From Candidatus Aenigmatarchaeota archaeon (GTDB taxonomy: Archaea > Aenigmatarchaeota > Aenigmatarchaeia > QMZP01 > QMZT01): a DNA stretch of 64,000 nt. The number at the start of each line of letters is the position of its first letter. Positions within the stretch are counted from its first letter, which is position 1. Shown piece by piece: positions 1-60,704 of this stretch. The position numbers and the translations under genes are program-made. The notes beneath the pieces are model-generated. The model saw nothing but the letters and a program-made list of their open reading frames with translations. It was not told the DNA's origin and made no database searches. The stretch spans positions 861,795 to 925,794 of the forward strand of contig CAVSBQ010000002.1 in NCBI GenBank assembly GCA_963726265.1. The letters are read 5' to 3'.

Positions 1-705
1 GGTCGCCATGCCGTAGAACTCCTGGGTGAAAGGCTCCCCTGCAATTTTTAGCGACTGGTCCCTTTTCACAAGGTCCGTCGCAAGGACGTAGTCCGCTACC
101 ATGGCGTCTATAGTGCCTGATTTCAGGTCGTATAATATGCCGCTTTGAGGATTTCCTTCCGGAACATCAAAACCGTCATATGGCATGGCAGTAGCCCCGT
201 ATTTTTCCGCCTCGTCTATGCTAGTAGTTTCCTTCTGAGCCCCGACTTTCCTGCCTTTTAGGTCTTCTGGAGTTTTTATTTCATTATTGCTGTTCTTAAC
301 CACGATTGTTTGGCCTGCATTGAAGTAAGGGGAACTGAAGAGCATCCTTTCAGACCTCTCTGGCGTTATGGTTATGGATGCAATGGCGATGTCGATATCG
401 CCATTCTCCACGGCCTTGAACAGTTCATCCCAGGCATAATCGACGAATTGAATTTCAACACCCATCGAGGCGGCGATTTCCCTGATTATATCGACGTCCA
501 AACCCACTACCTGGCCTTTCTCGTCATAAAATTCCATCGGCTCATAAGGTATGTCGCTGCCCACGACGAGCTTCCCGCTCGCCTTGACATTCGATAGCGA
601 CGCATCCGTTGATCCGCCAGGAGCGTTAGTCGTGCATCCTGAAATCGCGACTACCAAAAACAAAGCTGTTAAAATGGCCACTGCACCACGTTTTTCATTT
701 GACAT
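1..705 (-). CDS. ABC transporter substrate-binding lipoprotein (family-3 solute-binding protein, amino-acid type); partial, C-terminus beyond window edge
   Basis: Reverse-strand reading from ATG at 703-705 gives MSNEKRGAVAILTALFLVVAISGC... (signal peptide plus lipobox-like Cys), then GKLVVGSDIPYEPMEF...GLDVDI...FDIAIASITITPER, typical of family-3 periplasmic binding proteins. Absent from the ORF track because it runs off the window edge. Confidence 0.6.
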   Translation of the reverse strand, partial: MSNEKRGAVAILTALFLVVAISGCTTNAPGGSTDASLSNVKASGKLVVGSDIPYEPMEFYDEKGQVVGLDVDIIREIAASMGVEIQFVDYAWDELFKAVENGDIDIAIASITITPERSERMLFSSPYFNAGQTIVVKNSNNEIKTPEDLKGRKVGAQKETTSIDEAEKYGATAMPYDGFDVPEGNPQSGILYDLKSGTIDAMVADYVLATDLVKRDQSLKIAGEPFTQEFYGMAT

Positions 706-725
706 ACACAACCCCAATTATCGCT

Positions 726-2333
726 TTAACTTCCAGTTTTATTTTTTTTAAGCTGGCTTTCAAGCTCGTTTATCCTTTTCTTCAGCTCGACCATTTTGAG
801 TTCCCTGCCGACTGAAAGCTTGTTGATTTTTTCGAGTTCTTCCGTCCTTTTTATTATCTCCTCACCGGCCTTTTTCCTTTCCGTGATGTCCTTCATGGTG
901 CCTAGCATGCGGAACGCCTTGCCTTCGGCGTTTTTCAGGACCGTGCCGCTGTTTTCCATGTAAATGTAATTGCCGTCTTTGCGCATGAACCTGTATTCGG
1001 CATCGTATTTCGTGCCTTCCTTCAGCGCCTTTTCGAGAAGGGACAAGGCCGTTTCGCGGTCATCCGGATGGATAGCGTCTCCCCATTCCTTTATGCCCAT
1101 TTTCTGGAATTCGTCGAAGCCGTAGCCGGTCAGGCTGGTTATTGCGCCCAGCCATTTAATCCTCCCGGAAGCTACGTCGTAATCATAGATTATCTGGCCC
1201 GTCTGCTCGGCGGCAATCCTGTAGGTGTTCTCGTTTTCGAAAATCACGTTCTGCACTTTCTTCTGCTCCGTGATGTCCCTGAATATTCCCTGAAGCAATT
1301 TTTTACCCTCTGTTTCAATCAGGTTGGCTTTTATCGTAACGTCCTTTAATTTCCCGTTTTTGGTGATAACGTGCGTTTCCAGTGCCTGGCCTCTGGCCTC
1401 TGTGAGATGCTTTCTGAAGGTTTCGCTGAATTGCCCTTCGATACCTTCCGGTGGGTGGAGTATCTTCTGGTGCTGCCCAATGAGCTCTGCCTTGCTCCTC
1501 CCGACCAGTTCCGTTGCTGCGCGGTTGCAGTTGACAATTATCCCCGTTTTCGCATCGGCTATGACAATGGCGTCAAGCGCCTCCTCGAACTGTATCCTGT
1601 ATCTTTTCTCGCTCTCCCTCAATTTCTCTTCGGCTTTCTTCCGCTCGGTTATGTCGCGGCCAGTGACCAATATCCCTACCGTTTTACCCTTTTCACGGAC
1701 AGGAACTGAGCCTTCATCAACTTCCAGATATCTAATTTCCCCTGATTTTGTTTTGATTTCGAGCTCTATCTTCTTCTGGGGTTGGCCGAGGAATTCCTTC
1801 GTCAGGACATAAAAGGCGGTTTTTATGGAATTCTTTGTCAGGAAACTGGCAATCGACTTGCCTACCATCTCATTCTCTGCATAGCCGCTGGCCTCAAAGG
1901 CCCTCTTGTTGGCGAACAATATCCTCCCCGTTTTATCCAAAATGAGCATGATGTCCCTCATGCTTTCCGAGATAAACCTGTATCTTTCTTCCCTTTCCCT
2001 CAATTTCTCCCCTGTTTTTTCCCTCTCGGTGACGTCGCTGCCGACGTCAAGGACTTTGGTCACCCTGCCGTTCTCCCTGATGGGTATGCCTATAAGCTCG
2101 AGAAGCAGATCCCTGCCGCCTTTAAGCTTGATGGTATAGATCGTCTTTTCCGTCACCTTCCCCTGCAGGTTCTTCCTGAATTCCAGGAATGCCCTTATCA
2201 GATCCTTTTTGCCGAGCAGGCCGATTTCGGAGAATTTTTTGCCGATGACGTCTTTGGCTTTCAGGCCTGTCAGCTTCTCCGTATACTCATTGGCTTCCAG
2301 AATCCTGCCGCCCCTGTCGATGGTGAAAGCCAC
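726..2333 (-). CDS. multi-PAS domain sensor protein with no recognisable output domain; C-terminal coiled-coil motif VGRELKMVELKKRINELE
   Basis: 535-aa ORF with repeated PAS-like blocks (e.g. GRILFANKRAFEASGY...E, ITERKKAEEKL linker heptads recurring three times). No His-kinase, GGDEF or HTH domain visible. The C-terminal 30 aa form a charged coiled-coil. Confidence 0.7.
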   Translation of the reverse strand: MAFTIDRGGRILEANEYTEKLTGLKAKDVIGKKFSEIGLLGKKDLIRAFLEFRKNLQGKVTEKTIYTIKLKGGRDLLLELIGIPIRENGRVTKVLDVGSDVTEREKTGEKLREREERYRFISESMRDIMLILDKTGRILFANKRAFEASGYAENEMVGKSIASFLTKNSIKTAFYVLTKEFLGQPQKKIELEIKTKSGEIRYLEVDEGSVPVREKGKTVGILVTGRDITERKKAEEKLRESEKRYRIQFEEALDAIVIADAKTGIIVNCNRAATELVGRSKAELIGQHQKILHPPEGIEGQFSETFRKHLTEARGQALETHVITKNGKLKDVTIKANLIETEGKKLLQGIFRDITEQKKVQNVIFENENTYRIAAEQTGQIIYDYDVASGRIKWLGAITSLTGYGFDEFQKMGIKEWGDAIHPDDRETALSLLEKALKEGTKYDAEYRFMRKDGNYIYMENSGTVLKNAEGKAFRMLGTMKDITERKKAGEEIIKRTEELEKINKLSVGRELKMVELKKRINELESQLKKNKTGS

Positions 2334-2429
2334 GAAAGGCAGGTTCTCAAAAATAGTCTTGTAAGCCTCACCGCCATTCCCGCTTGGTTCGTCTCGGATT
2401 TACCTTCCTTCGAAGTATCATACGCCCCA

Positions 2430-3065
2430 TTACCCCATCTCGACGACCTTGTCCACGAACATGCTGAGGTCCTTGGTCATCTCGGTTTTCACGTCGTCCT
2501 TCAGCGCCATCAGGACGCCCTTCGAGCCGAGGGAGCGGAAAACGGATATTATCGAGTGCACGAACCTGGTAACCACAGACGACTCTTCGTATATCAGCAG
2601 CGTGGACAGCGAATCGAAAATCGTTATGCCCGGCTTGTTGGCCTCCAGGAGTTTTTTCATGGCGATGTTCATCTCGGTCAGCGCTTTCGGAGACGAGACG
2701 CAAACGACCTTTCCGCCTGCCTCTGTCCCCGACGGACTCTTGGTCACGCAGTCTATGAAGCAGAATTTGCTGGTGTCGATTTTGCTCTTCTCGAAGTTTT
2801 TCATCAGGGTCGTGTATGGCTTGTTCGCCGAAACGTAGCATACCTTTTCGCTGAGGCTAGCCGCTATACCGGCGATGTCGTTTATTTTTTCCGAATACTT
2901 CTCGTTGGGCACAAGGACCAGTATTATGTCGTTGTCCTTTATCGCCTTTTTTGTGTCTTCCTTCTCGATTCTGTCCTTTGTCCCGGCATCCTTGATTATA
3001 AGCCCACCCCAATTTAATAAATTGATTCGGTCGGTTATAAACTTAACAAGAAAATGTTTAAACAT
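2430..3065 (-). CDS. KaiC/RecA-superfamily-like domain protein (Walker A not evident; possibly degenerate), directly upstream of the PAS sensor
   Basis: 211-aa ORF. Overall beta-alpha pattern and C-terminal segment (GVLMALKDDVKTEMTKDLSMFVDKVV) resemble KaiC/RAD55-like archaeal signalling ATPases, but no GxxxxGK[ST] is seen, so the call is tentative. Confidence 0.4.
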   Translation of the reverse strand: MFKHFLVKFITDRINLLNWGGLIIKDAGTKDRIEKEDTKKAIKDNDIILVLVPNEKYSEKINDIAGIAASLSEKVCYVSANKPYTTLMKNFEKSKIDTSKFCFIDCVTKSPSGTEAGGKVVCVSSPKALTEMNIAMKKLLEANKPGITIFDSLSTLLIYEESSVVTRFVHSIISVFRSLGSKGVLMALKDDVKTEMTKDLSMFVDKVVEMG

Positions 3066-3372
3066 GGACGCGAAAAGGGAAAAGGTCTACGCATTTCTCA
3101 GGAAAGTTCCGTCAGGAAAAATAACAACTTACGGAGAGCTCGCGAAAGCCGCAGGCACACATCCGCGCGCAGTGGCGATGTTCATGAAACACAACCAGGA
3201 CCCTGTCAATATCCCATGCTACAAAGTGATAAGGTCAGACGGTTCTCTCGGCGGCTATTCGGGCCGCGGCGGCGTTAAAAGGAAGGCGGCGCTTCTGAAG
3301 AAGGATGGCATAGCAGTAAAAAACGGCAAAATAGAGCTCAAAAAACATCTCCACCGCTTCTCAAAATCTTAA
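3064..3372 (+). CDS. MGMT-family (methylated-DNA-protein-cysteine methyltransferase C-terminal DNA-binding domain) protein, stand-alone; active-site region reads PCYKV rather than canonical PCHRV
   Basis: MDAKREKVYAFLRKVPSGKITTYGELAKAAG...NIPCYKVIRSDGSLGGY matches the Ogt/ATL helix-turn-helix plus active-site loop architecture. Start chosen at ATG 3064 rather than the longer upstream ORF. Confidence 0.55.
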   Translation: MDAKREKVYAFLRKVPSGKITTYGELAKAAGTHPRAVAMFMKHNQDPVNIPCYKVIRSDGSLGGYSGRGGVKRKAALLKKDGIAVKNGKIELKKHLHRFSKS

Positions 3373-3581
3373 AAATCCCAGTTTCAATTCTTAACCATGA
3401 AAGCCGGCATCGAAGGTCCCGAAAAAGGACGTTATCCTCTTTGTCGTGCAGGAGGTCATGCAGAAGCATAGGGAAGTCGAATCGCTGCGTGAGTTCACTG
3501 AGCTCGTCAACATGCGCCTGAAGATGGTCGACTCGAAACTTTCCGTTTCAGGCGCGCGCCTGAGGAGCATATTTATCAAGG

Positions 3582-3785
3582 ATGCACGGCACAAAGCTGG
3601 TGACGGAGACGCGCATGGGCGGCAAGACCGAGAAATGCCCCTCATGTTACTCGAGCCTTAAAAAAATCTACACGAAGAACCTGAAAGGCAGGAAAATCCT
3701 CTACAAGATGATGTGCCAGAGATGCGGTTATTCCGGAGTCAACGGAAAGTTCGCACCGAAAAGATACAAGTTCGTAAAGGCATAA
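3582..3785 (+). CDS. small zinc-ribbon protein (CxxC...CxxC)
   Basis: 67-aa ORF with CPSCYS...CQRCGYSG, a typical 4-Cys zinc ribbon. Frame and start uncertain; the neighbouring ORF 3446-3661 begins with GTG. Confidence 0.3.
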   Translation: MHGTKLVTETRMGGKTEKCPSCYSSLKKIYTKNLKGRKILYKMMCQRCGYSGVNGKFAPKRYKFVKA

Positions 3786-3796
3786 CACGAGGGTTT

Positions 3797-4817
3797 CTAC
3801 CTGTAAATGACCCTGACCTTCTTCAGCTCTTTGATGTTCCTCGCGCCGACCAGGAACATGGCATCCTCCAGCTGCGAGATGACTTTTTCCAGATGCGCTT
3901 TCACGCCCTGCCACGACTCGTTCGCCGGCTTCAGCAGGGGCAGCGCCATGCCAGCGAGGTCTGCGCCCATCGCAATCGCTTTAGCGACTTCGACGCCGTT
4001 GCGTATCCCGCCTGAAGCGATTATAGGGACTTTCACCGAGCGCGCGACGTCTCTCAGCGCCTCCGCCGTTGGGATGCCCCACTCCTCGATGTGGCTGACA
4101 TCTTCTTTCGTTCTATGCCCGTCGACCTTGACCCATGACGTCCCGCCCGCGCCCGCGATGTCTATCGCCTTCACGCCAGCGAGGACCAGGCGCCTCGAGA
4201 GCTCGCCGGAAATCCCGCAGCCCGTTTCCTTCGCTATCACCGGGACCCTGGACTTCCTGCATATCTTCCTGATTTCCTCATAAACGCCCTTCCACGCCTT
4301 GTCGCCTTCCTGCTGCGCGAGCTCCTGCGCGACGTTCAGATGGATCGCAAGGCCGTCCGCCTTTATAGAGTCCACGAGCGAGGCGATTCTTTCCAGCTTC
4401 GTATTGCCTGAGTTGCGCGGCACCGATGTTGCCGAGAAGGAAGATGCTCGGCGCGACGTCGCGGACGAGATAGGTCCTCGTCGTCTTCGCGTCCTCCAGC
4501 ATCGCGCGCTGCGAGCCGACGCCCATGCCTATGCCTAACGCTTCCGCCGCCTTCGCGAGATTCCTGTTTATGCGTTCGCCATTCGCCGTCCCGCCCGTGA
4601 TAGCCTCGATGAAAAGCGGCGCTGAAAATCTCTTGCCGAGAAACACAGTCTTCGTGTTGATTTCATCCCTGCTGATTTCAGGGAGCGCCTTATGCTCGAG
4701 CTCGACGTGCTCGAAGCCGTTCGATTTCGCGAATTCGACGTCCTCCTCCAGGCATATGCGTATGTGGTCGTCCTTCCTCGACTTCGTCACGGCTTTCGCA
4801 GAAGACATGATAATCAT
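3797..4817 (-). CDS. fni: isopentenyl-diphosphate delta-isomerase type 2 (FMN-dependent), interrupted by an apparent -1/+1 frameshift near 4395-4420
   Basis: N-terminal ORF 4278-4817 (…HIRICLEEDVEF…FIEAITGG…VGSQRAMLED…LLGNIGAAQL) and C-terminal ORF 3797-4423 (…KLERIASLVDSIKADGLAIHLN…IAKETGCGIS…DIAGAGGTSW…IASGGIRNG) are contiguous IDI-2 sequence in different frames. The shift lies in the ...cgaagctggaaagaatcg... stretch. Confidence 0.8.
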
Positions 4818-4829
4818 TATCCTATTATT

Positions 4830-5609
4830 CTATTTTCCGTTTATAACGGTTCCCAGGCCCTTTTCACCCAGAAGCGAGCGCCTGAGAAGGCCGGGCTTCA
4901 GGCCGTTTATTATCTCGACCTCGGTTCCCATGGCAAGCGCCATCCTGACTTTCTGCATCATCCCTCCGGTCACGTCGGCGATCCCGTCCGAGGAAGAAAG
5001 CGACTCGGCTATTTCCCTGAAGTTTTTCCTGTCAATCGCCCTTATTTTTTCGCCGAGCGGGCCGAGCACACCATCCGTTTTTCCTGCCATTATTATCCTT
5101 TCCGGCTTCAGCTTCCTCGCGAGGAAGCGCAGTATCTCCTCGGTCGAGATTATGCAGCAGCCCTTCGCCTCGTCGAGGCACGCGTCGCCGTATGGGACGG
5201 GTATCGCGCCTTTCGCGAGCAGGGTCTCGAGCGGCCTGGTATGCCATTCCCTTATGCTGTCGTTCTTCGCGAAGCAGGACGCGGATGGCTGTATCGAAAC
5301 GGCGTTCTCGCCTGCCTCGAGCAGCGATGATACGATAATCCTGTTGAGCTTCGCGGCGTCGTCCTGGACTCTGGCGAAGCCCTCCCAGCTCTTGCTGTTT
5401 ATGACGCCTTTGTGGGTCTGGTATTTGCTGGCCGAGACGTGCGGGAAGCTGCCGCCGCCGTGGCCGACGAGAAGCGCGAACTTCCTTTGCGCTCGCGCTT
5501 CGCGTATCTCCCTGCAAAGGCGTTTTATCACATCGTATCTCGCGGTATACGGCTTCGACTTGTCCGTTATCAGCGAGCCGCCCAGCTTGACGAATATCAG
5601 ATTTTTCAT
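4830..5609 (-). CDS. ipk: isopentenyl phosphate kinase (amino-acid-kinase fold)
   Basis: MKNLIFVKLGGSLITDK...LLVGHGGGSFPH...IISTEEIL...GKTDGVL...DVTGGM, the hallmark IPK pattern; adjacent to fni. Confidence 0.85.
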   Translation of the reverse strand: MKNLIFVKLGGSLITDKSKPYTARYDVIKRLCREIREARAQRKFALLVGHGGGSFPHVSASKYQTHKGVINSKSWEGFARVQDDAAKLNRIIVSSLLEAGENAVSIQPSASCFAKNDSIREWHTRPLETLLAKGAIPVPYGDACLDEAKGCCIISTEEILRFLARKLKPERIIMAGKTDGVLGPLGEKIRAIDRKNFREIAESLSSSDGIADVTGGMMQKVRMALAMGTEVEIINGLKPGLLRRSLLGEKGLGTVINGK

Positions 5610-5654
5610 AGTTAAAATTGCAAACCTTTATTTAAATTTGAAACAAGTACTCTC

Positions 5655-5999
5655 ATGGACGCGAAAAGGGAATGCCTCATTTCACTGAATGCGTATCACA
5701 GGCTTTATCCGGGCAGCTTCTTCGGCAGGCCGCTGAAAGCGAGAGAGCTCAGGGACGCGGGAAACTCGCTCGTTTTCGCCGGTTTCGGGGCGCTCGCGCC
5801 GCTTGCAAAAGAAAATAAGGATTTCTTCGTCATACTGCGGCTTATAGACCAGAACGTCGAGGACTTTTTCTGCATGCTCGCCTCGGGAGACATGAAGCTT
5901 TTCGCGTGCAGGTTTGACGATGCGAAGAAAGCCGCTGACAAAAAAGCGCTTGAGAAGTTCGGGAAATATTACATGGAAGAGAAGAAGAAGCTTCGCTGA
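5655..5999 (+). CDS. hypothetical protein (114 aa) embedded in the mevalonate-pathway cluster
   Basis: ORF with reasonable codon usage. No recognisable motif. Its first 19 nt are identical to the start of the MGMT-like gene at 3064. Confidence 0.35.
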   Translation: MDAKRECLISLNAYHRLYPGSFFGRPLKARELRDAGNSLVFAGFGALAPLAKENKDFFVILRLIDQNVEDFFCMLASGDMKLFACRFDDAKKAADKKALEKFGKYYMEEKKKLR

Positions 6000-6012
6000 A
6001 CTTCGCTGCTCG

Positions 6013-6603
6013 CTACGCCCATCTTTTGTAGATTTTGTTTTCAATCCCGAGCGAGTCCAGCGTCTTGCCTATTATGTGGTTTACCATTTCGTCTATGCCT
6101 TTGGGCTTTGAATACAAGGTGAGGATCGGCGGCAGTATCACCCCGCCAGCCAGCGTGACGCGGCGCATGTTCTCTATGTGTATCAGGCTCAGCGGCGTTT
6201 CCCTCGCCACGAGCACGAGCTTCCTCCGTTCTTTCAGGCACACATCCGCTGCTCGTAACATCAGGTTGTCCGAATATCCCGAAGCGACGCCGGCGAGCGT
6301 CTTCATGCTGCACGGGATTATCACCATGCCTTTCGTTTTGAAGGAGCCGGATGCAATGGCAGCAAACATGTCATTATAGCCATAAACCTTCGTGGCGAGC
6401 TTTTCAACAGCCTTTATGCTATAGTCCGTCTCGTGCTCTATCAGCTTCTTCGCCGTGTCGCTTATCACCAGATGCGTCTCGATGTCCAGTCTCTTTAGCG
6501 TTTCGAGAAAACGTATTCCCAGAAGCGAGCCGGAGCTGCCAGAAATGCCTACGATAACCTTCTCCTTCGCTTCACGCATGTTCAACTGTTCCTTTCTCGG
6601 CAT
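6013..6603 (-). CDS. ubiX: UbiX-family flavin prenyltransferase (prenyl-FMN synthase), expected partner of the UbiD-like decarboxylase
   Basis: KVIVGISGSSGSLLGIRFLETL...IIPCSMKTLAGVASGYSDNLMLRAADVCLKERRKLVLV...ETPLSLIH is strongly UbiX/Pad1-like. Confidence 0.85.
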   Translation of the reverse strand: MPRKEQLNMREAKEKVIVGISGSSGSLLGIRFLETLKRLDIETHLVISDTAKKLIEHETDYSIKAVEKLATKVYGYNDMFAAIASGSFKTKGMVIIPCSMKTLAGVASGYSDNLMLRAADVCLKERRKLVLVARETPLSLIHIENMRRVTLAGGVILPPILTLYSKPKGIDEMVNHIIGKTLDSLGIENKIYKRWA

Positions 6604-6982
6604 CGACTTTCAGCCTGTCGCCCGTCTTTATTTTGTCAATGTCTATCTGGTCGACGCAGGGTATGCCGGCGAGAATGACGCCTGTCGCGACTATCGTCTC
6701 CGTCTCCCTGTTGATTATCGCCTTCGGCGCGACGCCATTCTTCTTCAGGCCGTAAATGACGTACGACCCTACGGTCGAGCCCTTGCCGTTGGGAAAGACG
6801 AGAATCTTGCCCTTCACATTCTGCCCTTCGAGCTCGTGGCCTTTCTCTATCACGATGCCGGTCTTCGCATCGATGCCGCCGTAGAAGCCAAGCGGCGTTT
6901 TCGAGACTATCGCCTCGCCTTCGGCCTTGCCCGGCGATATGCTCCGTCCCTTCATAACTTCTTTGGTCATAACAATCACCAA
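6572..6982 (-). CDS. aconitase X small subunit-like protein (DUF126 family): putative phosphomevalonate dehydratase small subunit
   Basis: 136-aa protein with PLGFYGGIDAKTGIV...GKILVFPNGKGSTVGSYVIYGLKKNGVAPKAII, as in AcnX small subunits; immediately upstream of the large subunit. Confidence 0.7.
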   Translation of the reverse strand: MVIVMTKEVMKGRSISPGKAEGEAIVSKTPLGFYGGIDAKTGIVIEKGHELEGQNVKGKILVFPNGKGSTVGSYVIYGLKKNGVAPKAIINRETETIVATGVILAGIPCVDQIDIDKIKTGDRLKVDAEKGTVEHA

Positions 6983-7029
6983 CCTTTATGCATCATCCAT
7001 TCCTTCGAAAGACACATATTTCATATGTG

Positions 7030-8208
7030 TCATCCCTTTATCAAATCGTCTATGTTTTTGAACACGACGCTCTGCTTGCAGAAGCCCGGAAGATAATTCC
7101 CGGCCTTCCCCGAATCCACGCCAGTCGTCTTGAAGCCCATCTGTTCTATGGGAGAAACGACCATGCACGTGTCCGCGACGATTTTACCGCCCGCCTTCTC
7201 GATTATCGTCGTCAGGCCCATTCTAGTCGCGGCGTCCTTCATCACGCGCGACGTGCAGATCCACAGCGGCTTCTTCAGATGTTTACCTTCAAGCTTTTTG
7301 GATATGCTTATTATTTCCCTGAGCGACGCGTGCGGGCAGCCGATGACTACGAGGTCCGGATCCTTGCCCGTGTTGAGCTTCGCATACGCCTCCTTCAATT
7401 CCTTCTCGCCTACCTCTATGGTCTCGAGACCTTTCGTGTCCATCGCATTCGCCTCAGGCGTCATGCCGTCTATATGATAAAGAGCCACCGCTCCGCTGGC
7501 CGCCATCGCCGCTCCGAATGCTTTAAGGTTATCAGTGTTCGCGTTCTTGATGCCGGTGAAATAAGGGATTTTGCTGCCCGCGATTTTTCCTACATGAGAG
7601 CCGAGCGCGCCGAAATCGGAATTGAACTCGAGCTTAGCGTCGACCTTCACCAGCAGCTGCGGCTTCCTGTTCTCGTCGAGATGCAGGCCATAGTTCGGGG
7701 TGAAGCCGCATATCGCCGCTGCGAGGGCGGATGGCCCGCCTTCGCGGTTCGTCCTCGCGCCTATCACGGAATTCGAGAATGACACGGCAGAGCTTTCAGA
7801 CCACGCGATGTGCTCGCGGAACCTTGGCAAATTACCGGCGAGATAAGGAGTGCACGTCGCTGACATGACTATGCCCATCTTCTCGAAAGCGTCCATTATC
7901 TTCTTCTGCATCCTCGCGAAATCCTCCGGGAAACCCATCTCCTTCCAGCTTTCCATGTCCATGCCGGCCGGGTTCAGGAACGTCAGAATCCTGACCTTCG
8001 CACCTTTGTTCGCGATGTCCTCGAGGAATTCGAGGCCGGGGTCGCCTATGGATTTGTAAGACACGCCCGCGACCTGCGCGGAGCCGATTTCGATCATTTT
8101 ATCGGCCTTGTAAATCTCGCCAAGGCGCACGAGCAGGCGCATTTGTCTCTCGACGACTTCACCATGCGTTCCGTTGAGCATCTTCTCCTGTTCTTTAGTG
8201 AGATACAT
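7030..8208 (-). CDS. aconitase X large subunit-like protein (DUF521 family): putative phosphomevalonate dehydratase large subunit
   Basis: 392 aa, MYLTKEQEKMLNG...GSAQVAGVSYK...ATCTPY...WSESSAVSFSNSVIGARTNREGGPSALAAAI...VIGCPHASL. This is the characteristic AcnX large-subunit signature. Confidence 0.8.
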   Translation of the reverse strand: MYLTKEQEKMLNGTHGEVVERQMRLLVRLGEIYKADKMIEIGSAQVAGVSYKSIGDPGLEFLEDIANKGAKVRILTFLNPAGMDMESWKEMGFPEDFARMQKKIMDAFEKMGIVMSATCTPYLAGNLPRFREHIAWSESSAVSFSNSVIGARTNREGGPSALAAAICGFTPNYGLHLDENRKPQLLVKVDAKLEFNSDFGALGSHVGKIAGSKIPYFTGIKNANTDNLKAFGAAMAASGAVALYHIDGMTPEANAMDTKGLETIEVGEKELKEAYAKLNTGKDPDLVVIGCPHASLREIISISKKLEGKHLKKPLWICTSRVMKDAATRMGLTTIIEKAGGKIVADTCMVVSPIEQMGFKTTGVDSGKAGNYLPGFCKQSVVFKNIDDLIKG

Positions 8209-8218
8209 AATTCACCCC

Positions 8219-8542
8219 TCAGATTTTATTTTCGATTATTTTGCAGTTCTTCTTGAGCATCTCTATTTCTTTTTTACTCGCGTTGTTGACATGAATCCCG
8301 GCTATGCACACGACAGGCGCTTTCGTTTTCCTGCATTTCCTTTCCGCGATGGGCTTGGCGACAAGCCAGTCGTAGTGGCCTTTCCTGCTGACCACTTTCG
8401 CCGGTTTTCCTGGTGCGCACACGACGACGCAGCCTATGTGCGTCCTCTCGCCGCCGCCCAGAAAGAGCACGATGTCGCGCCCCTGCCTCTCTTCTTTCAG
8501 CCACACTTTGTATTTGCCCTTTCCTGCAGTCAGCATGCGCAT
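8219..8542 (-). CDS. conserved-looking hypothetical protein (107 aa) between AcnX large subunit and the UbiD-like gene
   Basis: MRMLTAGKGKYKVWLKEERQGRDIVLFLGGGERTHIGCVVVCAPGKPAK...VVCIAGIHVNNASKKEIEML. No family recognised. Tightly packed in the operon (11 nt after acnX-L start, abutting the ubiD-like stop). Confidence 0.4.
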   Translation of the reverse strand: MRMLTAGKGKYKVWLKEERQGRDIVLFLGGGERTHIGCVVVCAPGKPAKVVSRKGHYDWLVAKPIAERKCRKTKAPVVCIAGIHVNNASKKEIEMLKKNCKIIENKI

Positions 8543-9862
8543 CTACTCCACCAGGTAATCCTCAAAATTTATCTTCATCGGCAGCTCGGGCCTGCTGAAG
8601 TCCTTGCCCTTCGAGACGAGCGGCTTGGTCAGGTCGAAGCCGACCTTCGTCGTCTCGCGCGTGGCCATGTCAGACGAAGGGTCGAGCGACGAGCCCTTCT
8701 CTTTCGTCTTTACTATCATGTTCTTGTCTGCTTGAAAGCGAGTAGCCATGGCCCATTCGATTTCGCTCGGGTTCTCGATGTCTATGTCGCCATCGACGAT
8801 GAAAACGTGCTTCATCGATGCGTGGCCCTTGAACGCGGCTTCGATTGCTTTGCGTCCGTCGTCGTCGTGCTTCTTGTGAATCTTGACCGCGCCGTGCAGC
8901 CACGAGCATCCGCCGGGAGTTATGTAGACGTCGAGGCATTCGCATACCTTGTTGACCTCGCGGAAAATCGTCGGCTCGCGCGGCATGCCCATGAGAATCT
9001 TGTGCTCCAGGTCGCCGGGCAGCAGCGCATGGAAAAGCGCTCCCTTGCGCGCATAGATTTTCTTGACGCGCACGACCGACTGCTTGCGGACGATGTCGAA
9101 AGTCTCGGTCAGGTCGAGGAACGGCCCTTCGTCCGCGAGCTCGCCGGTGAATTCGCATATCATGACTATTTCGCTTTCCGGGACGATGTGCCCGTCCAGT
9201 TCGACGACGTATCGTCTCATGCAGCGCGTTCGCAATCGCCAGCTCGTTCTTGCCCAGCTCCGCGGATATCGCCGCGCCGATAAGGACGGTCGTCGGATTG
9301 CCTATGCAGAAGGCGAATTCCTTCAGCCCGCGTTTCTGGTATTCATTCAGATGGCGTTCCAGGATGCGCAGCACCATTTTGTCCTTGCCGATAATCATTG
9401 CCCGATGATAGGACGCGTTTGTGCCATACTCGTTGTCCTTCGCGACCGCGATGCCGGACGCGATGTAAGGCCCGCCATCCTTTGGGTAGTAGGTCAGAAT
9501 CGGCAGCTTGGAAAGGTCGCATTCAAGTTCCTCATATGCCGCTTTCGCGATCTTTACGGCGGCTCCTTCGGATGGTCTATCGCATGCGTCAGCTTCGCTA
9601 TCAGCTCCTTCTTGTCGATCCCGAGGCCGAGGCAAACCAGGTCGCGCGTCGAGCAGACGTTCGATACGACGGGCATGCTGTGGCCTTTCACGTGCTCGAA
9701 AAGCACGGGCTTGCCATTGAGCTTCTTGACTATGGTCGATATCTCGTATTTGGTGTCGACCGGCTTCTTGATTCTCGTAAGCATACCTTTCTTGTCCAGC
9801 AAATCAACAAATTCCCTCATGTTCATCAAAATCACCTTAACCCTTTCAGGCTTTTCAGCCAT
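8543..9862 (-). CDS. UbiD-family (prenyl-FMN-dependent) decarboxylase, probably anhydromevalonate-phosphate decarboxylase; reading frame broken twice
   Basis: Three overlapping ORFs carry consecutive UbiD segments. 9554-9862: MAEKPERVKVILMNMREFVDLLDKKGML...PVLFEHVKG. N-part of 8670-9635: ...LPILTYYPKDGGPYIASGIAVAKD...FAFCIGNPT. 8543-9235: ...ITPGGCSWLHGAVK...FIVDGDIDIENPSEIEWAMATRFQ. Frame changes near 9560-9640 and 9180-9240. Confidence 0.7.
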
Positions 9863-9994
9863 CCGAATCCGATATTCATAGCCTTAATAGAGAAATTGGG
9901 TTTTTATTTTAAATTGTTAACAGACGCCAATCGTCGAGTTCTGGGTCTATTTTAAAGTATTTAAATACAAATTAGCTATTAAATAGTAATAATT

Positions 9995-11065
9995 ATGACG
10001 ATAATACTACCTTCCCACGATGAAAGCGTTATGCCGCTTACCTTAGGTCATGTTCTCAGGACTCCTAGCGAAGACTGGCCAAACTACGGCATAAGATGGG
10101 ATACGCCAACGGACTTCCAAAGGCTCGTTGAGTGGAGCAGGGGCGAATACATGAGGGAATGGGCTCAGGGAGATCCGACGCAAATAGAAGTTGTTGCAGA
10201 GGCTTCGAAAAGAGCTTTCAGCGGTAATGACAACAACCAGATTCTGAGAGAAAAGACGGGCGAAGTCGTTGCTAAACATCTTGAGATGCAGACGCAAAGC
10301 GGCAAAAGAGTTTTTTATGTCCTTGATGTCGGCGCGGGCGCCGGAGATTCTTTCATAACATTTTTGGACAAAGTCCCGAAAGACTTCAAAGGTGAAATAA
10401 CTGCTGTGCTTCTGGACCCGGCCGCAAAGCCACTGGGCAAAGCTGCTGAAAGGGTTGCTGGACGCGGAATCAAATACGTGATGCTTGAAGGAAGACAGGA
10501 CCAGATACCGGAGCTGTTTGCAAAATACCTTGATGGTAAGAAAATGTCAGCCGTTTTACAGGTTGGTTCTATACATCATGATTGCAACATCCCATTCCAG
10601 CATTTTTTTAATGTAATCGAAGATGACGGCATATTCGCATCCGGCGACTGGCATCCGCAGACGTGGCAGAATCCTGCTTACGTATTGAAAATGCTGGAAA
10701 CAAACTGGCCGGAACATGAACAGGCAATAGCACATTTCAAGAAAGTTTATGGTGTAAAAAATTCATCTTTACCGCGCGACGCCAAAGACAAGCAGGCGTG
10801 CAAGGATATATTCAGATTCTGGAAAGCTTACCACGATGGCCTGAGAGAAAGGGGAAGAGATCATGGCTCAAACAGCATATGGCCGTTTGAATCGCATCAG
10901 GACTTCAGGAGATATATTGAGAAAATGAAGGCCGCTGGATTTTCGACTGACGTTGATGGTTATCTTGGCGAGCTTCTGCATGAAACAGGAACTGCAAACC
11001 CTCAAAGTTTCTACAAAAACAGTACTGTTATAATGGGAACATACGGACACAGGTTATCGGTTTGA
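9995..11065 (+). CDS. class-I SAM-dependent methyltransferase-like protein
   Basis: VLDVGAGAGDSF motif-I-like Gly-rich loop followed by acidic residue patterns (VLLDPA..). 356 aa. Substrate unknown. Confidence 0.5.
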   Translation: MTIILPSHDESVMPLTLGHVLRTPSEDWPNYGIRWDTPTDFQRLVEWSRGEYMREWAQGDPTQIEVVAEASKRAFSGNDNNQILREKTGEVVAKHLEMQTQSGKRVFYVLDVGAGAGDSFITFLDKVPKDFKGEITAVLLDPAAKPLGKAAERVAGRGIKYVMLEGRQDQIPELFAKYLDGKKMSAVLQVGSIHHDCNIPFQHFFNVIEDDGIFASGDWHPQTWQNPAYVLKMLETNWPEHEQAIAHFKKVYGVKNSSLPRDAKDKQACKDIFRFWKAYHDGLRERGRDHGSNSIWPFESHQDFRRYIEKMKAAGFSTDVDGYLGELLHETGTANPQSFYKNSTVIMGTYGHRLSV

Positions 11066-11070
11066 AATAA

Positions 11071-12003
11071 TCAGACGCCGATTTCCGTCTTAAGCGTCCT
11101 GTAGCCTTTCGCTTCTATCGCCTTCGCGACCTTATCCTGCGTGGCCTTGCCGGGCGTAAGGATGATAACGTAGCCACCGCGTCCTGTGCCTGTTATTTTC
11201 GCTCCAGCAGCGCCGTTCGCCCTGGCAACGTTTATGATTTCCTCTGCCTGCCTGCATGAAAGGTTCATTTCCCTGAGCAGGTGGTGGTTCTCGTCCATGA
11301 GCTTGCCGAGTTTTTGTATGTCACCGCTCTCAAGGACGCCTCTCGCTTCCTTCACGATTTTCACGTAATCGCTGAATAGCTTCTCGTATTTCTTCGGGTC
11401 CGCTTCCTTCGCCTTTTTCACGTCCTCGACGACGAGCTTCGTCTCCTGGGAGATGCCAGTGTTGCCGAGCACGATTTCGATGGAATGTCTCGCCTTTATC
11501 AGCTCCATCCTGTTCTCGCCGCCTTTGAAATTCTTCTCGAACCACAGCAGGCCGCCGAAGGTCGCGCAGGTATTATCGATTCCGGAAGGCGTGCCTGCCG
11601 AACCTTTCTCGCCTTCGTAGGATATCCTGTTCACCTGCTCGTCGTCCAGGCCGAGTTTGAAATATTCCGAGAACGCGCGGGCGATGGACGTCGCCATAGC
11701 CGCGCTCGCCCCTATGCCGCTCGTGCAGAAAAGGTTGCCAGAAAGCGTGATTTTCATCGGCGTTTTAACAGGGTCGATTTTCATGAAGTCGAAAATGAGC
11801 TTCATGGAGCGCTCCATCTCGTCCTTCTTCATCATCTTGTAGCCGTCTGTCGCCGGCCGCTTGTCCACGAGCTCGAATTTCTTCGCCTTCTCGATATTCG
11901 CGATGGTTTTATCGCCTATCGCCGAAGCTATCGCTGGCAGGCCATACACCACGAAATGCTCTCCGAACAAAATGATTTTTCCGAAACCATAACCTTCTGC
12001 CAT
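11071..12003 (-). CDS. mvk: mevalonate kinase (GHMP kinase family)
   Basis: GKIILFGEHFVVYG...TSGIGASAAMATSIARAF...GKITGTGRGG, canonical MVK motifs. Confidence 0.85.
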   Translation of the reverse strand: MAEGYGFGKIILFGEHFVVYGLPAIASAIGDKTIANIEKAKKFELVDKRPATDGYKMMKKDEMERSMKLIFDFMKIDPVKTPMKITLSGNLFCTSGIGASAAMATSIARAFSEYFKLGLDDEQVNRISYEGEKGSAGTPSGIDNTCATFGGLLWFEKNFKGGENRMELIKARHSIEIVLGNTGISQETKLVVEDVKKAKEADPKKYEKLFSDYVKIVKEARGVLESGDIQKLGKLMDENHHLLREMNLSCRQAEEIINVARANGAAGAKITGTGRGGYVIILTPGKATQDKVAKAIEAKGYRTLKTEIGV

Positions 12004-15601: not shown

Positions 15602-15675
15602 TGGGGCAAGTGGGATTTGAACCCACGACCTATCGGTCTTCAGCCGAGCGCTCTCCCGGGCTGAGCTATTGCCCC
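15602..15675 (-). tRNA. tRNA-Phe (anticodon GAA)
   Basis: Reverse complement GGGGCAATAGCTCAGCCCGGGAGAGCGCTCGGCTGAAGACCGATAGGTCGTGGGTTCAAATCCCACTTGCCCCA folds as a cloverleaf (7-bp acceptor, GTTCAAATC T-loop), with anticodon loop CTGAAGA. Confidence 0.8.
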
Positions 15676-15991: not shown

Positions 15992-16122
15992 GTTAAGTTA
16001 TTGGGCTAAAGCTTGAAAAACGTTTCAGAAGCAGCAGGCTGACGCAGGCTTGCCTGCGCTTAAATCGATTGAAACAGGCAGGGCCTGTTTCTTTCGCTCG
16101 TCACGTCCCGGGCAGGGAACGA

Positions 16123-16194
16123 CGTCCCGAGCAGGGTTCGAACCTGCGACCTATCGGTTAACAGCCGATCGCTCTACCACTGAGCTATCGGGAC
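16123..16194 (-). tRNA. tRNA-Asn (anticodon GTT)
   Basis: Reverse complement GTCCCGATAGCTCAGTGGTAGAGCGATCGGCTGTTAACCGATAGGTCGCAGGTTCGAACCCTGCTCGGGACG. Cloverleaf with anticodon loop CTGTTAA. Confidence 0.8.
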
Positions 16195-16257
16195 AATACT
16201 AAAGTTTAACCAGCGCCAGAAATAAAAAGGTTTTTCATTCCCTTTGCAAAATCCTTT

Positions 16258-58751: not shown

Positions 58752-59534
58752 ATGATGCCGAAAAAACTGCTTTTGCTTATTGCACTGACTATAACTACTG
58801 TTGTAGGAATGCTACTGCAGACGTCAGACAGCCCTTCTTTGATCAGATACCTGTTCGCTGGCACAGGACTGATTTTTATCCCGATCATCTCGGCATGGAT
58901 TGGTATTGATGGCGCAAGGGCCTTTACCTTCAAGAGCGTCTTCGGCAAGTCATTGCTGTTCATTTCACTTGGTGTGTTAGCATGGGGACTGGGTGATGTT
59001 GCATTTTTTTATTACAACATATCGGGTACAGAAGTTCCGTATCCTTCCTTGGCTGATGTCGGATACATTGCACTGATTCCTCTTGTGAGTTATGGCGTGT
59101 TTTTGCTTCTGAAAGGCGTTAAAATGAAACTGGATGCTAAAACCATTTTCAAGATTCTGATATCGCCGATATTAGTTTTATTGGTCATATTCCCGTTTTT
59201 CATTTATGGAAAGCTGGCCGAGGATGTGGATCTGCTCACGAAAACCCTCAATGTCCTTTACCCCGTGGGCGATGTCTTGTTCTTGTCGTTTGCTCTGATA
59301 ATAATAACCCTTACTTATGGCAGTGTTCTGTTCAAATCGCTTCGCATAATCAGTTTGGGCTTCATAATAGAAGCTATGGCAGATTTTTCATTCTCTTATG
59401 CTACCGCTGCTGGCATTTATTACACGTCAAGTTGGGATGATGTCTTATTTGCCCTAGCGTTCTTTACCATAGGCTTCGGGATGTATTACATGTCGAAAAG
59501 CCTGAAAGAGCCTGCCAAAAAGCAGAGTGCCTAG
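58752..59534 (+). CDS. polytopic integral membrane protein (about 7 TM), hypothetical; AT-rich gene
   Basis: Repeated hydrophobic helices throughout. No transporter signature recognised. Confidence 0.5.
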   Translation: MMPKKLLLLIALTITTVVGMLLQTSDSPSLIRYLFAGTGLIFIPIISAWIGIDGARAFTFKSVFGKSLLFISLGVLAWGLGDVAFFYYNISGTEVPYPSLADVGYIALIPLVSYGVFLLLKGVKMKLDAKTIFKILISPILVLLVIFPFFIYGKLAEDVDLLTKTLNVLYPVGDVLFLSFALIIITLTYGSVLFKSLRIISLGFIIEAMADFSFSYATAAGIYYTSSWDDVLFALAFFTIGFGMYYMSKSLKEPAKKQSA

Positions 59535-59642: not shown

Positions 59643-60011
59643 ATGGGAGACAGGATAAAAACCAAGAACGGCGAGGTATGGGTGGAAGGCGAAATCCTGA
59701 TGATGAAGATGTCAGGCGAGATAGAAGAGGATGAGATGAAAGAGATTGCGAGAATTAACATGGACATGATCAAGAAATTCAAATTGAAATACGTCCTGGT
59801 GGTTTCGGATGTCACGAAAACGTCTTTCGACGCAAGGCAGATGGCATCCAATTTTAACCTGGACCCGATAAAAAAAATAGCCATGATATGCAAAAACCCC
59901 GTGACCAGGATCATCGCCTCGTTCTTCATGCGAAAATATGCGTTAACGATACCGACCAAGCTTTTCTCCGATACCGAGGAAGCCAAGAAATGGTTAAGGG
60001 AGGGAAAGTGA
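59643..60011 (+). CDS. STAS/SpoIIAA-like small protein, paralogue 1
   Basis: 122 aa. About 45% identical to the next gene (…GEVWVEGEILMMKMSGE…KKFKLKYVLVVSDV…ICKNPVTRIIASFFMRKY…EEAKKWL). Confidence 0.5.
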   Translation: MGDRIKTKNGEVWVEGEILMMKMSGEIEEDEMKEIARINMDMIKKFKLKYVLVVSDVTKTSFDARQMASNFNLDPIKKIAMICKNPVTRIIASFFMRKYALTIPTKLFSDTEEAKKWLREGK

Positions 60012-60012
60012 C

Positions 60013-60387
60013 ATGGAAAAAGTAAAGTTAAAAAACAGCGAAGTATGGGTGGATGGAGATATACTCATGATTAAAATGTCGGGCGAGGCGACGTATGAAG
60101 AGATGGACGAAATCACGAACGCGAGCGCGGACCTGGTCAAAAAATTCAAACTGAAATACATCCTGGTGGACTCGGACGTCAGAAAGATGTCCTTGAGCGC
60201 GAGAAAAAAGAATTTCACTTACGTGGGAGCAGTAACAGTGGAAAAAATAGCCTTCATCTGCGCCAATCCGGTGACCCGAGCCATTGCCATGTTTTTAGTT
60301 AGGGGATACAAATTGGAGATACCGGTCAGGCTTTTCTCGAATGCCGAAGATGCCAAGAAATGGTTCAGTGAGGAGAAAAAGGCATGA
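60013..60387 (+). CDS. STAS/SpoIIAA-like small protein, paralogue 2
   Basis: 124 aa. Tandem duplicate of the preceding gene; 2-nt spacing. Confidence 0.5.
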   Translation: MEKVKLKNSEVWVDGDILMIKMSGEATYEEMDEITNASADLVKKFKLKYILVDSDVRKMSLSARKKNFTYVGAVTVEKIAFICANPVTRAIAMFLVRGYKLEIPVRLFSNAEDAKKWFSEEKKA

Positions 60388-60704
60388 AAGGAACGGAATC
60401 CGCAACGAGCGACATCGGGAAAAGGATAAACGAAATCCTCGACGTGCTCCAGAAGGCGGCAGCCGGCGACCTGAACGTCTCCGCCCCGATCAGCGAAAAG
60501 ACGGATGAGCTGGATGCGCTGGCGGCAGGCATAAACATGATGATAGAAGAGGTGAGGGAAAGGACCAAGGAGCTGGAACAGAAGAACGAGGAGCTCGCGA
60601 AGTTCAACAAAATGGCGGTCGGCAGGGAGCTGAAGATGATCGAGCTGAAAAAAAGGGTCGGGGAGCTGGAAAACCTGCTGCATGAACATGGCATCAAACC
60701 GTAG
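60384..60704 (+). CDS. HAMP-like domain protein ending in the same C-terminal coiled-coil motif as the PAS sensor (…VGRELKMIELKKRVGELE…)
   Basis: …DIGKRINEILDVLQKAAAGDLNVSAPISEKTDELDALAAGINMMIEEV… resembles HAMP (AS1-connector-AS2 with DExG). C-terminal 35 aa nearly identical in pattern to residues 500-535 of the 726-2333 protein. Confidence 0.5.
   Translation: MKGTESATSDIGKRINEILDVLQKAAAGDLNVSAPISEKTDELDALAAGINMMIEEVRERTKELEQKNEELAKFNKMAVGRELKMIELKKRVGELENLLHEHGIKP

Follow-up and report, generated by a model that had tools for sequence, protein, structure and literature searches.

The signalling helix (S-helix) is a parallel coiled coil that leaves HAMP, PAS or other sensor domains and bears an "ERT" signature with its Arg at heptad position d (Anantharaman, Balaji and Aravind 2006, PMC1592074). 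By that account, it nearly always connects two signalling domains (PMC1592074). Many prokaryotic genomes also encode sensors without a recognizable output, and the route by which these proteins signal is an open question in signal-transduction censuses. Two sensors of this kind are encoded in the stretch of DNA analysed here, a window of 64,000 nucleotides (nt) from a Candidatus Aenigmatarchaeota archaeon (GenBank assembly GCA_963726265.1, contig CAVSBQ010000002.1, positions 861,795 to 925,794 of the forward strand). One is a multi-PAS protein and the other a small HAMP protein, and both end in the same coiled-coil tail. An initial annotation of the window proposed that this ending is a docking or output module, for example for a KaiC-like protein or a STAS pair encoded nearby. 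The tail is a discrete, conserved and widespread C-terminal module of output-less sensors. It is excluded from chains with kinase domains, continues the S-helix in phase, and is linked reciprocally in gene order to kinases that carry a second conserved segment, AxLNxxED.

Two Sensors With a Common C-Terminal Tail

The multi-PAS protein is encoded on the minus strand (726..2333; 535 residues, stop codon at 726-728) and is a sensor only, as Pfam finds four PAS domains in it and nothing else. Its C-terminus reads GEEIIKRTEELEKINKLSVGRELKMVELKKRINELESQLKKNKTGS, an ending also written IIKRTEELEKINKLSVGRELKMVELKKRINELESQLKKNKTGS; the tail module spans 729..866, with the core GRELKMVELK at 780-809. 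The second protein is small and cytoplasmic (60384..60704, plus strand; 106 residues), and its single Pfam match is a HAMP domain at residues 13-59 (E = 4e-9). An S-helix (EVRERT...) and the tail module follow at 60549..60701, with the core GRELKMIELK at 60621-60650, and the chain closes with EVRERTKELEQKNEELAKFNKMAVGRELKMIELKKRVGELENLLHEHGIKP, also written VRERTKELEQKNEELAKFNKMAVGRELKMIELKKRVGELENLLHEHGIKP. The tail, at residues 56-106, lies beyond the HAMP match, and HAMP is absent from the PAS protein altogether. The initial annotation gave both C-termini correctly. They share the form ...[FI]NK[LM]xVGRELKM[IV]ELKKR..., and the annotation's statement that neither protein has a kinase, cyclase, methyl-acceptor or DNA-binding output agrees with the Pfam results.

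The two cores lie 59.8 kb apart and are near-invariant across relatives. Their DNA differs mostly at synonymous third positions; therefore, their identity has been kept at the peptide level through selection on the peptide, and does not reflect a recent DNA duplication. When a hidden Markov model (HMM) of the tail built from unrelated genomes is run against the six-frame translation of the window, it recovers only these two frames, each at E = 2e-16, and the next-best match has E = 0.04. A loose regular expression finds the same two copies only. No Pfam or NCBIfam family covers either tail at E<=1, and the MCPsignal profile has no match in either protein.

The 535-residue product matches exactly a gene model in a public protein collection. 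A PAS N-cap, EAYKTIFENLPF, runs in frame upstream of the called GTG at 2333 up to a stop codon (2333-2400, minus strand), and no ATG, GTG or TTG occurs between that stop and the GTG. Thus, either the start codon of the multi-PAS gene is uncertain or an indel is present.

Family Size, Position and Range

The tail profile (A1, 48 columns) was used in an exhaustive HMMER search of 1.84 billion cluster representatives, of which 15,558 match at E<=1e-3 and 2,137 at E<=1e-10. The motif therefore has thousands of carriers, and the confinement to two proteins by which the initial annotation would have been refuted does not hold. A word-indexed search with the HAMP protein retrieves 34 proteins, all of which bear [GRD]RELKM[IV]ELK near the C-terminus, preceded in every case by ERTKELxxKxxELExF. 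When one genome per species is scanned for ELKM[IV]ELK, at least 598 stretches match. In archaea, the tail occurs in DPANN, Thermoplasmata and Methanobacteriota; in bacteria, it occurs in Patescibacteria (the candidate phyla radiation, CPR), Geobacteraceae, Desulfuromonadaceae, Nitrospirae, Chloroflexota, Gammaproteobacteria, Bacteroidales and Planctomycetia. The consensus is ELE[KR]FNK[LM]xVGRELKM[IV]ELKKxIxELE. Bacterial tails are longer, reading GRELRMIELKKEINxLxxxLGxPxxY with the extension ...EINxLxxxLGxPxxY, and the tail is as conserved in bacterial and CPR loci as in archaeal ones.

The position of the tail is as constant as its sequence. Among 167 retrieved motif-bearing proteins, about 90% have 2-21 residues between the end of the motif and the C-terminus (median 16, maximum 72), and the distance exceeds 30 in four. 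Of 78 genome loci fetched, 76 were analysed (individual loci are labelled L0xx below). In the 91 exact-motif open reading frames (ORFs) of these loci, the stop codon falls 8-26 residues past the motif, and an HMM re-scan of the same loci yields 120 tail proteins, all 120 with the tail at the C-terminus. A class of "tail-only" mini-proteins of 34-90 residues was considered and dropped, since most look like C-terminal fragments of PAS proteins.

The domains that precede the tail are those of sensors. In 88 long representatives, Pfam finds HAMP (41), PAS (17), dCache (9), PocR (4), and some GAF, 7TM and 4HB_MCP domains; the 25 Pfam families listed for these representatives include no kinase (HATPase_c), GGDEF cyclase, phosphodiesterase or MCPsignal domain. 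The JGI name "methyl-accepting chemotaxis protein" on some tail-bearing database entries is a label only. Precomputed Pfam annotation of the tail matches is empty over the tail region. A profile search of the PDB with the tail (E<=10) returns only generic coiled coils at E>=0.33. Full-text literature searches for tail motif strings gave nothing relevant, and concept searches gave general papers on S-helices and histidine kinases only. The tail, which had not been recognized as a named domain from the sequence, is indeed unnamed in Pfam, NCBIfam, the PDB and the literature searched.

Anatomy of the Tail Helix

The tail stands in a fixed relation to the S-helix. Where an ERT lies within 40 residues upstream, the spacing from its Arg to the Arg of GRE is 14, 21, 28 or 35 residues in 31 of 33 cases. 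As these are multiples of seven, both Arg residues occupy heptad d positions. In the HAMP protein, which has ERT, the spacing is 21 residues; in the PAS protein, a shortened S-helix with KRT precedes GRELKM, which follows 14 residues on, and the Arg-to-Arg distance of 14 is two heptads. AlphaFold2, given the HAMP protein and 14 homologues, predicts helices at residues 4-26 and 42-101 with a mean pLDDT of 90, and the second helix runs unbroken through the conserved Gly. This single straight helix differs from the long antiparallel hairpin of an MCPsignal domain. The initial annotation was right to see a discrete and conserved short helix, though it is not free-standing but an in-phase continuation of the S-helix "ERT" coiled coil.

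Column statistics over 81 unrelated proteins show that the R, E and K(+8) of the core are invariant, that M(+4) and L(+7) are conserved in 99%, and that F(-7) is conserved in 83%. Conserved hydrophobic residues also occur outside the a and d positions, at -4, -2, +2 and +5. This pattern suggests that the tail helix is buried on more than one face.

A CheB-like methylesterase gene is found among the tail genes of the Nitrospirae/Thermodesulfovibrio loci L012 and L015 (at about 4469-5104 in L015). S-helix methylation is reported for Bacillus cereus RsbK (PMC4574943), and together the two observations raise the possibility of covalent modification of tail helices.

Neighbouring Kinases and the AxLNxxED Segment

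ORFs were called in the 76 loci and clustered by all-against-all BLAST. The dominant neighbour family is encoded one to three genes downstream of the tail gene (+1 to +3) in the same orientation, and the intergenic distance is often between -4 and +20 nt. Ten examples of this family are all kinase-type signal transduction proteins: nine have HisKA, and all seven complete ones have HATPase_c. ORFs of the size of a REC domain come after the neighbouring HisKA kinases. These kinases share a segment, A[LIVM][LM]N[IMLV][MLVI]EDxxE (AxLNxxED), which lies upstream of the DHp domain or of a PAS domain and is not covered by Pfam; TAVLNMMEDTDE and ALLNILEDTEEA are examples. By HMM, AxLNxxED occurs in 40 of 48 H-box kinases of the tail loci versus 5 of about 660 other ORFs, and one of those five is a tail protein, the other four being kinase-like ORFs. 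The tail is absent from all 48 H-box kinases.

The association also holds when it is approached from the kinase. A reciprocal metagenome scan was made with Ax[LM]NMMED, which represents the archaeal subtype only, so that its results are biased towards that subtype. It yielded 80 loci, 75 of which have a motif-bearing ORF, mostly an H-box kinase. The upstream sequence is 1.5 kb or longer in 47 NMMED loci, and in 38 of these an ORF that bears the tail lies upstream in the same orientation. An AxLNxxED profile search of an index of 5.8 billion proteins was unproductive, with 4 matches, and a literature search for LNMMED-type strings found no relevant paper.

Tail genes may precede a single kinase in tandem arrays of four to seven genes, with seven in L046 and several in each of L011, L012 and L034. 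The L046 array spans 3062-11090, and its member at 9010-9762 bears AxLNxxED and the tail in one chain.

From the Arg of an ERT to the N of AxLNxxED, the distance is 13 or 20 residues in 35 of 35 cases, and the segment is therefore in the same heptad phase as the tail, with its N aligned with the G of the tail core. The two carry opposite net charge, basic in the tail core and acidic in the kinase segment, and both are hydrophobic beyond the a/d face. In an in-register parallel model, a tail homodimer has an invariant K/K g-e' clash with Arg facing Arg, while the corresponding hetero-pair has an invariant D-K pair in all 75 tail-kinase pairs considered.

A family of proteins of about 200 residues, with only a weak V4R match, is encoded within two genes of a tail gene in CPR loci (L022, L027, L029, L032, L036, L046, L050, L055, L056, L065, L072 and L079). 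It stands between the tail gene and the AxLNxxED kinase in most of these loci and may form a third component of the system in CPR organisms. FIST-domain proteins and NMT1/ABC-type solute-binding proteins also recur beside tail genes (L014, L020, L029, L036, L049, L065; L004, L030, L047, L059, L063; L007, L013). Their recurrence suggests that ligand-binding partners feed the tail sensors, and the solute-binding protein gene at the left end of the window fits this suggestion.

A Proposed Docking Helix for Stand-Alone Sensors

These observations can be accommodated by a model in which the tail forms the last four to five heptads of a parallel dimeric coiled coil that leaves the HAMP or PAS sensor as an S-helix. 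Tail proteins would stop where others continue into a DHp/kinase domain, a cyclase or a second PAS domain, and the tail would serve as the output module in the architectural place of the DHp/kinase domain. The stand-alone tail sensors would be co-transcribed, singly or in arrays, with a HisKA kinase bearing AxLNxxEDxxE in its stalk. The basic tail, hydrophobic on several faces, may then dock on the acidic AxLNxxED segment of that stalk as a heteromeric coiled coil or a 2+2 helical bundle. In this way, the conformational state of a separate sensor could be passed to the kinase, and several sensors could feed one kinase. Physical docking is what we infer from the pairing of the two segments, and the docking site, the stoichiometry and the sign of the effect on the kinase belong to the same proposal.

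That the tail is a trans-acting docking and output helix which couples stand-alone sensors to the AxLNxxED kinase is somewhat better than an even proposition. The kinase is put forward as the partner because it is the sole candidate with both the phyletic spread of the tail and a reciprocal gene-order link to it. The earlier suggestion of a docking or output module thus seems the best reading of a conserved module on output-less sensors, with the partner corrected to the HisKA kinase with AxLNxxED. A broader proposal, put more tentatively and with rather less than even confidence, is that the two segments form a plug-and-socket layer of two-component signalling in bacteria and archaea, in which GRELKMxELKK would be the plug and AxLNxxED the socket. 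Sensors could be added, swapped or arrayed without being fused to the kinase, and the layer would be prominent in the reduced genomes of DPANN and CPR organisms.

Several points weigh against docking on the kinase stalk. In the in-register model, 25-28 of the 75 pairs gain new repulsions away from the core, which makes the electrostatic picture a mixed one. About one in six neighbouring kinases is without AxLNxxED, including those of the Geobacteraceae loci L010, L011 and L020. In a few proteins, both AxLNxxED and the tail are present in one chain, spaced by about 45 residues along an apparently single helix, and such chains fit a shared, family-specific linker vocabulary as well as they fit a plug-and-socket pair. 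The gene-order link across related genomes is partly inherited and not independent, and both motif cores are nearly invariant, so that no covariation is measurable. Finally, the 64-kb window contains neither a kinase nor an AxLNxxED motif.

For the last of these points, relatives of the window locus offer a plausible answer. The 5' part of a solute-binding protein gene (SBP_bac_3, 1..705, minus strand; Pfam E = 2e-34) starts 20 nt downstream of the PAS-tail gene and runs off the start of the window. In L005, L030, L052 and L063, the order is tail gene, solute-binding protein gene, AxLNxxED kinase; in L047 and L062, the tail gene is followed by a solute-binding protein gene up to the end of the sequence. 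Since this order recurs in relatives, it is plausible that an AxLNxxED kinase lies just past the left edge of the window, and both tail proteins of the organism would then converge on one such kinase. The locus L040, from an Aenigmatarchaeota metagenome-assembled genome, is syntenic with positions 1-8,200 of the window (AcnX, UbiX, IPK, fni, ogt, DUF7504 and the PAS-tail gene), and there the PAS-tail gene is followed by a gene for a 187-residue membrane protein and then by an AxLNxxED kinase. Compared with its L040 counterpart, the DUF7504 protein of the window shows 89% identity; the PAS regions of the two loci share about 30%, while the last 45 or so residues of the PAS-tail proteins, which form the tail, are nearly identical. 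It appears from this comparison that the sensor part has been exchanged and the tail kept.

Alternative Readings of the Tail

The tail could instead be a homodimerising cap that closes the S-helix. Sensors would then act through other surfaces, by PAS-PAS or HAMP heterodimerization or ligand buffering, or without a fixed partner, and their co-occurrence with kinases would reflect common descent. A regular heptad helix in S-helix phase, predicted as a single straight helix, is what such a cap would look like; both motifs stand in cis in some chains, and the same types of sensor domain occur in tail proteins and neighbouring kinases, which co-cluster in the all-against-all BLAST. However, a zipper does not need 11 near-invariant residues from DPANN archaea to Gammaproteobacteria, and this one would hold an invariant Arg at d, a K/K g-e' clash and conserved hydrophobic residues at the outward b, f and g positions. 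The strict exclusion of the tail from chains with kinase domains, and a reciprocal neighbourhood link of about 80%, much tighter than paralogy alone predicts, also count against a cap, which is judged rather unlikely. A more remote idea derives the tail from DHp helix 1, degenerate or truncated and without its His, which would make it a kinase remnant, a decoy or a frameshifted kinase. VGRELKM has a superficial likeness to H-box strings such as IAAHELKTP, and IARELHD is a further H-box string that resembles it; the window also has at least one frameshift elsewhere, in fni. Yet hhalign of 90 tails against the DHp domains of 47 neighbouring kinases gives a probability of 0.6% and does not align the tail to the H-box. 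There is no Pfam HisKA match at E<=1, and the tail core has no His but Gly-Arg or Lys at the candidate positions. In all 91 exact-motif ORFs, the stop follows 8-26 residues past the motif. A frameshifted kinase was looked for in the window and rejected: the DNA downstream of the two tail genes encodes SBP_bac_3 and Nth-like genes and no kinase remnants. An origin from DHp, which the initial annotation had named as a risk to its proposal, is accordingly very improbable. The chance that the similarity merely reflects low-complexity coiled-coil composition is close to negligible: E, K and L are abundant in the sequence, and its weak PDB matches are generic coiled coils, but the HMM scores the two window ORFs at E = 2e-16 and nothing else in the window below E = 0.04, the 1.8-billion library holds 2,137 representatives at E<=1e-10, and residues outside the heptad pattern are invariant.

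Another set of partners is suggested by the genes beside the two tail genes, and it is the one that the initial annotation named as an example. Directly upstream of the PAS-tail gene lies a KaiC-like DUF7504 gene without a P-loop (2430..3065, minus strand; Pfam DUF7504 E = 1e-6, with a weak KaiC match). Two STAS/SpoIIAA-like DUF7793 genes precede the HAMP-tail gene on the plus strand; the first (59643..60011; Pfam DUF7793 E = 5e-16, SpoIIAA-like E = 8e-9) shares an operon with it, and the second (60013..60387; DUF7793 E = 5e-11) overlaps its start by 4 nt. The tail could thus act on DUF7504, DUF7793 or both, in a partner-switching or KaiC-type module. In support of this, DUF7504 is the gene immediately upstream of a tail gene in the window and in 12 further loci of archaeal type, its stop codon often overlapping the start codon of the tail gene, and DUF7504-family genes occur in 36 of about 156 analysed loci, several as a second copy beyond the kinase. 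In the window, L001 and L003, a DUF7793 gene directly precedes a small HAMP-tail gene. The reach of both families is narrow, however. DUF7504 is upstream of only 12 of 135 evaluable tail genes, in loci of which five are labelled archaeal, seven have no organism label and none is labelled bacterial or CPR, and DUF7793 has no match in 156 other loci. A motif that is invariant across domains of life calls for an equally spread partner, and the downstream HisKA kinase alone travels with the tail across archaea and bacteria. The proposal of a KaiC-like or STAS partner is therefore improbable as an account of the tail. Both neighbours are conserved, but only within archaeal sublineages, and they would be lineage-specific additions to the tail-kinase system. 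A literature search on DUF7793 or DUF7504 found no relevant paper.

Other Features of the Window

A 260-residue multi-pass membrane protein without a Pfam match is encoded at 58752-59534 (plus strand), just upstream of the cassette of two DUF7793 genes and the HAMP-tail gene. It could be a membrane partner of the HAMP protein, which has no transmembrane segment, and it is not conserved in L001 or L003. Downstream of the HAMP-tail gene lies an endonuclease III-type gene (HhH-GPD, Nth-like), and the remaining neighbours are housekeeping genes. The contig is about 1.1 Mb long, and the TFB protein of the window groups with Candidatus Aenigmarchaeota sequences at 90% identity or more. The fni gene for type-2 isopentenyl diphosphate isomerase (3797-4817, minus strand) carries a frameshift near position 4400 that divides it. 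In L040, the orthologue is intact (336 residues) and aligns to frame -1 over residues 1-138 and to frame -2 over residues 134-334, and the split gene is either a pseudogene or the product of an assembly indel. The sole Rfam and ARAGORN matches in the window are tRNA-Phe (GAA; 15602-15675, minus strand) and tRNA-Asn (GTT; 16121-16195, minus strand), and neither scan finds anything at either tail locus.

Implications

The tail provides output-less sensors with a searchable C-terminal signature and with a specific, testable partner, the adjacent kinase with AxLNxxED. In this way, "orphan sensors" become predicted inputs of defined two-component systems. If docking occurs, arrays of up to seven tail genes would explain how one kinase integrates several stimuli, and the rapid exchange of sensor domains over a fixed output, as between the window and L040, would be explained as well. 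The two segments would also constitute a compact natural heterospecific coiled-coil pair for the engineering of split sensor-kinases. Were the plug-and-socket layer real, nature would have its own non-covalent form of modular sensor-kinase rewiring. For domain databases, the tail and AxLNxxED are two unnamed conserved segments, and the tail segment alone covers thousands of proteins.

Comparison With Known Systems

The S-helix and the accessory regulation of kinases are already known. The new elements are the highly conserved signature at the end of the tail proteins and the reciprocal way in which it is paired with another conserved motif in the stalk of co-encoded kinases, and neither has an entry in Pfam, NCBIfam, the PDB or the literature searched. 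Like the S-helix, to which it is attached, the tail keeps the heptad register, following ERT at two to five heptads and repeating the polar Arg at d. Unlike the S-helix, it ends the protein, both in the window proteins and in all 120 tail proteins of the analysed loci, and no downstream domain stands among the 25 Pfam families listed for the 88 long representatives. It also adds the far more conserved GRELKMxELKK, which is outside the published description of the S-helix, and it is linked in trans to a kinase. Helix 1 of the DHp (HisKA) domain occupies the same place right after the S-helix and is likewise helical and dimeric, whereas the tail has no phospho-acceptor His, no helix 2 and no catalytic domain, and shows no profile similarity to DHp.

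Fos-Jun is a heterospecific leucine zipper with basic and acidic heptad segments. In the in-register model, the tail and the kinase segment would resemble it, as like charges at g/e' and a polar core residue disfavour the homodimer and are relieved in the hetero-pair. The pairing of the tail is a proposal, however, its partners are signalling stalks, and the two-stranded zipper and the 2+2 bundle are equally likely forms.

Separately encoded proteins that contact the helical core of a kinase are exemplified by Sda or KipI with KinA, FixT with FixL, and RetS with GacS. In contrast to the tail, these are family-specific regulators that are unrelated in sequence, and to our knowledge none of them uses a conserved C-terminal coiled-coil tail common to many sensor architectures in both bacteria and archaea. 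At the extreme C-terminus of chemoreceptors, the NWETF pentapeptide tethers CheR and CheB. The tail would be comparable as a short, conserved motif at the very end of the chain that provides a docking site for a signalling enzyme. NWETF, though, is an unstructured tether on proteins that have an output domain, whereas the tail is a structured helix that replaces the output domain.

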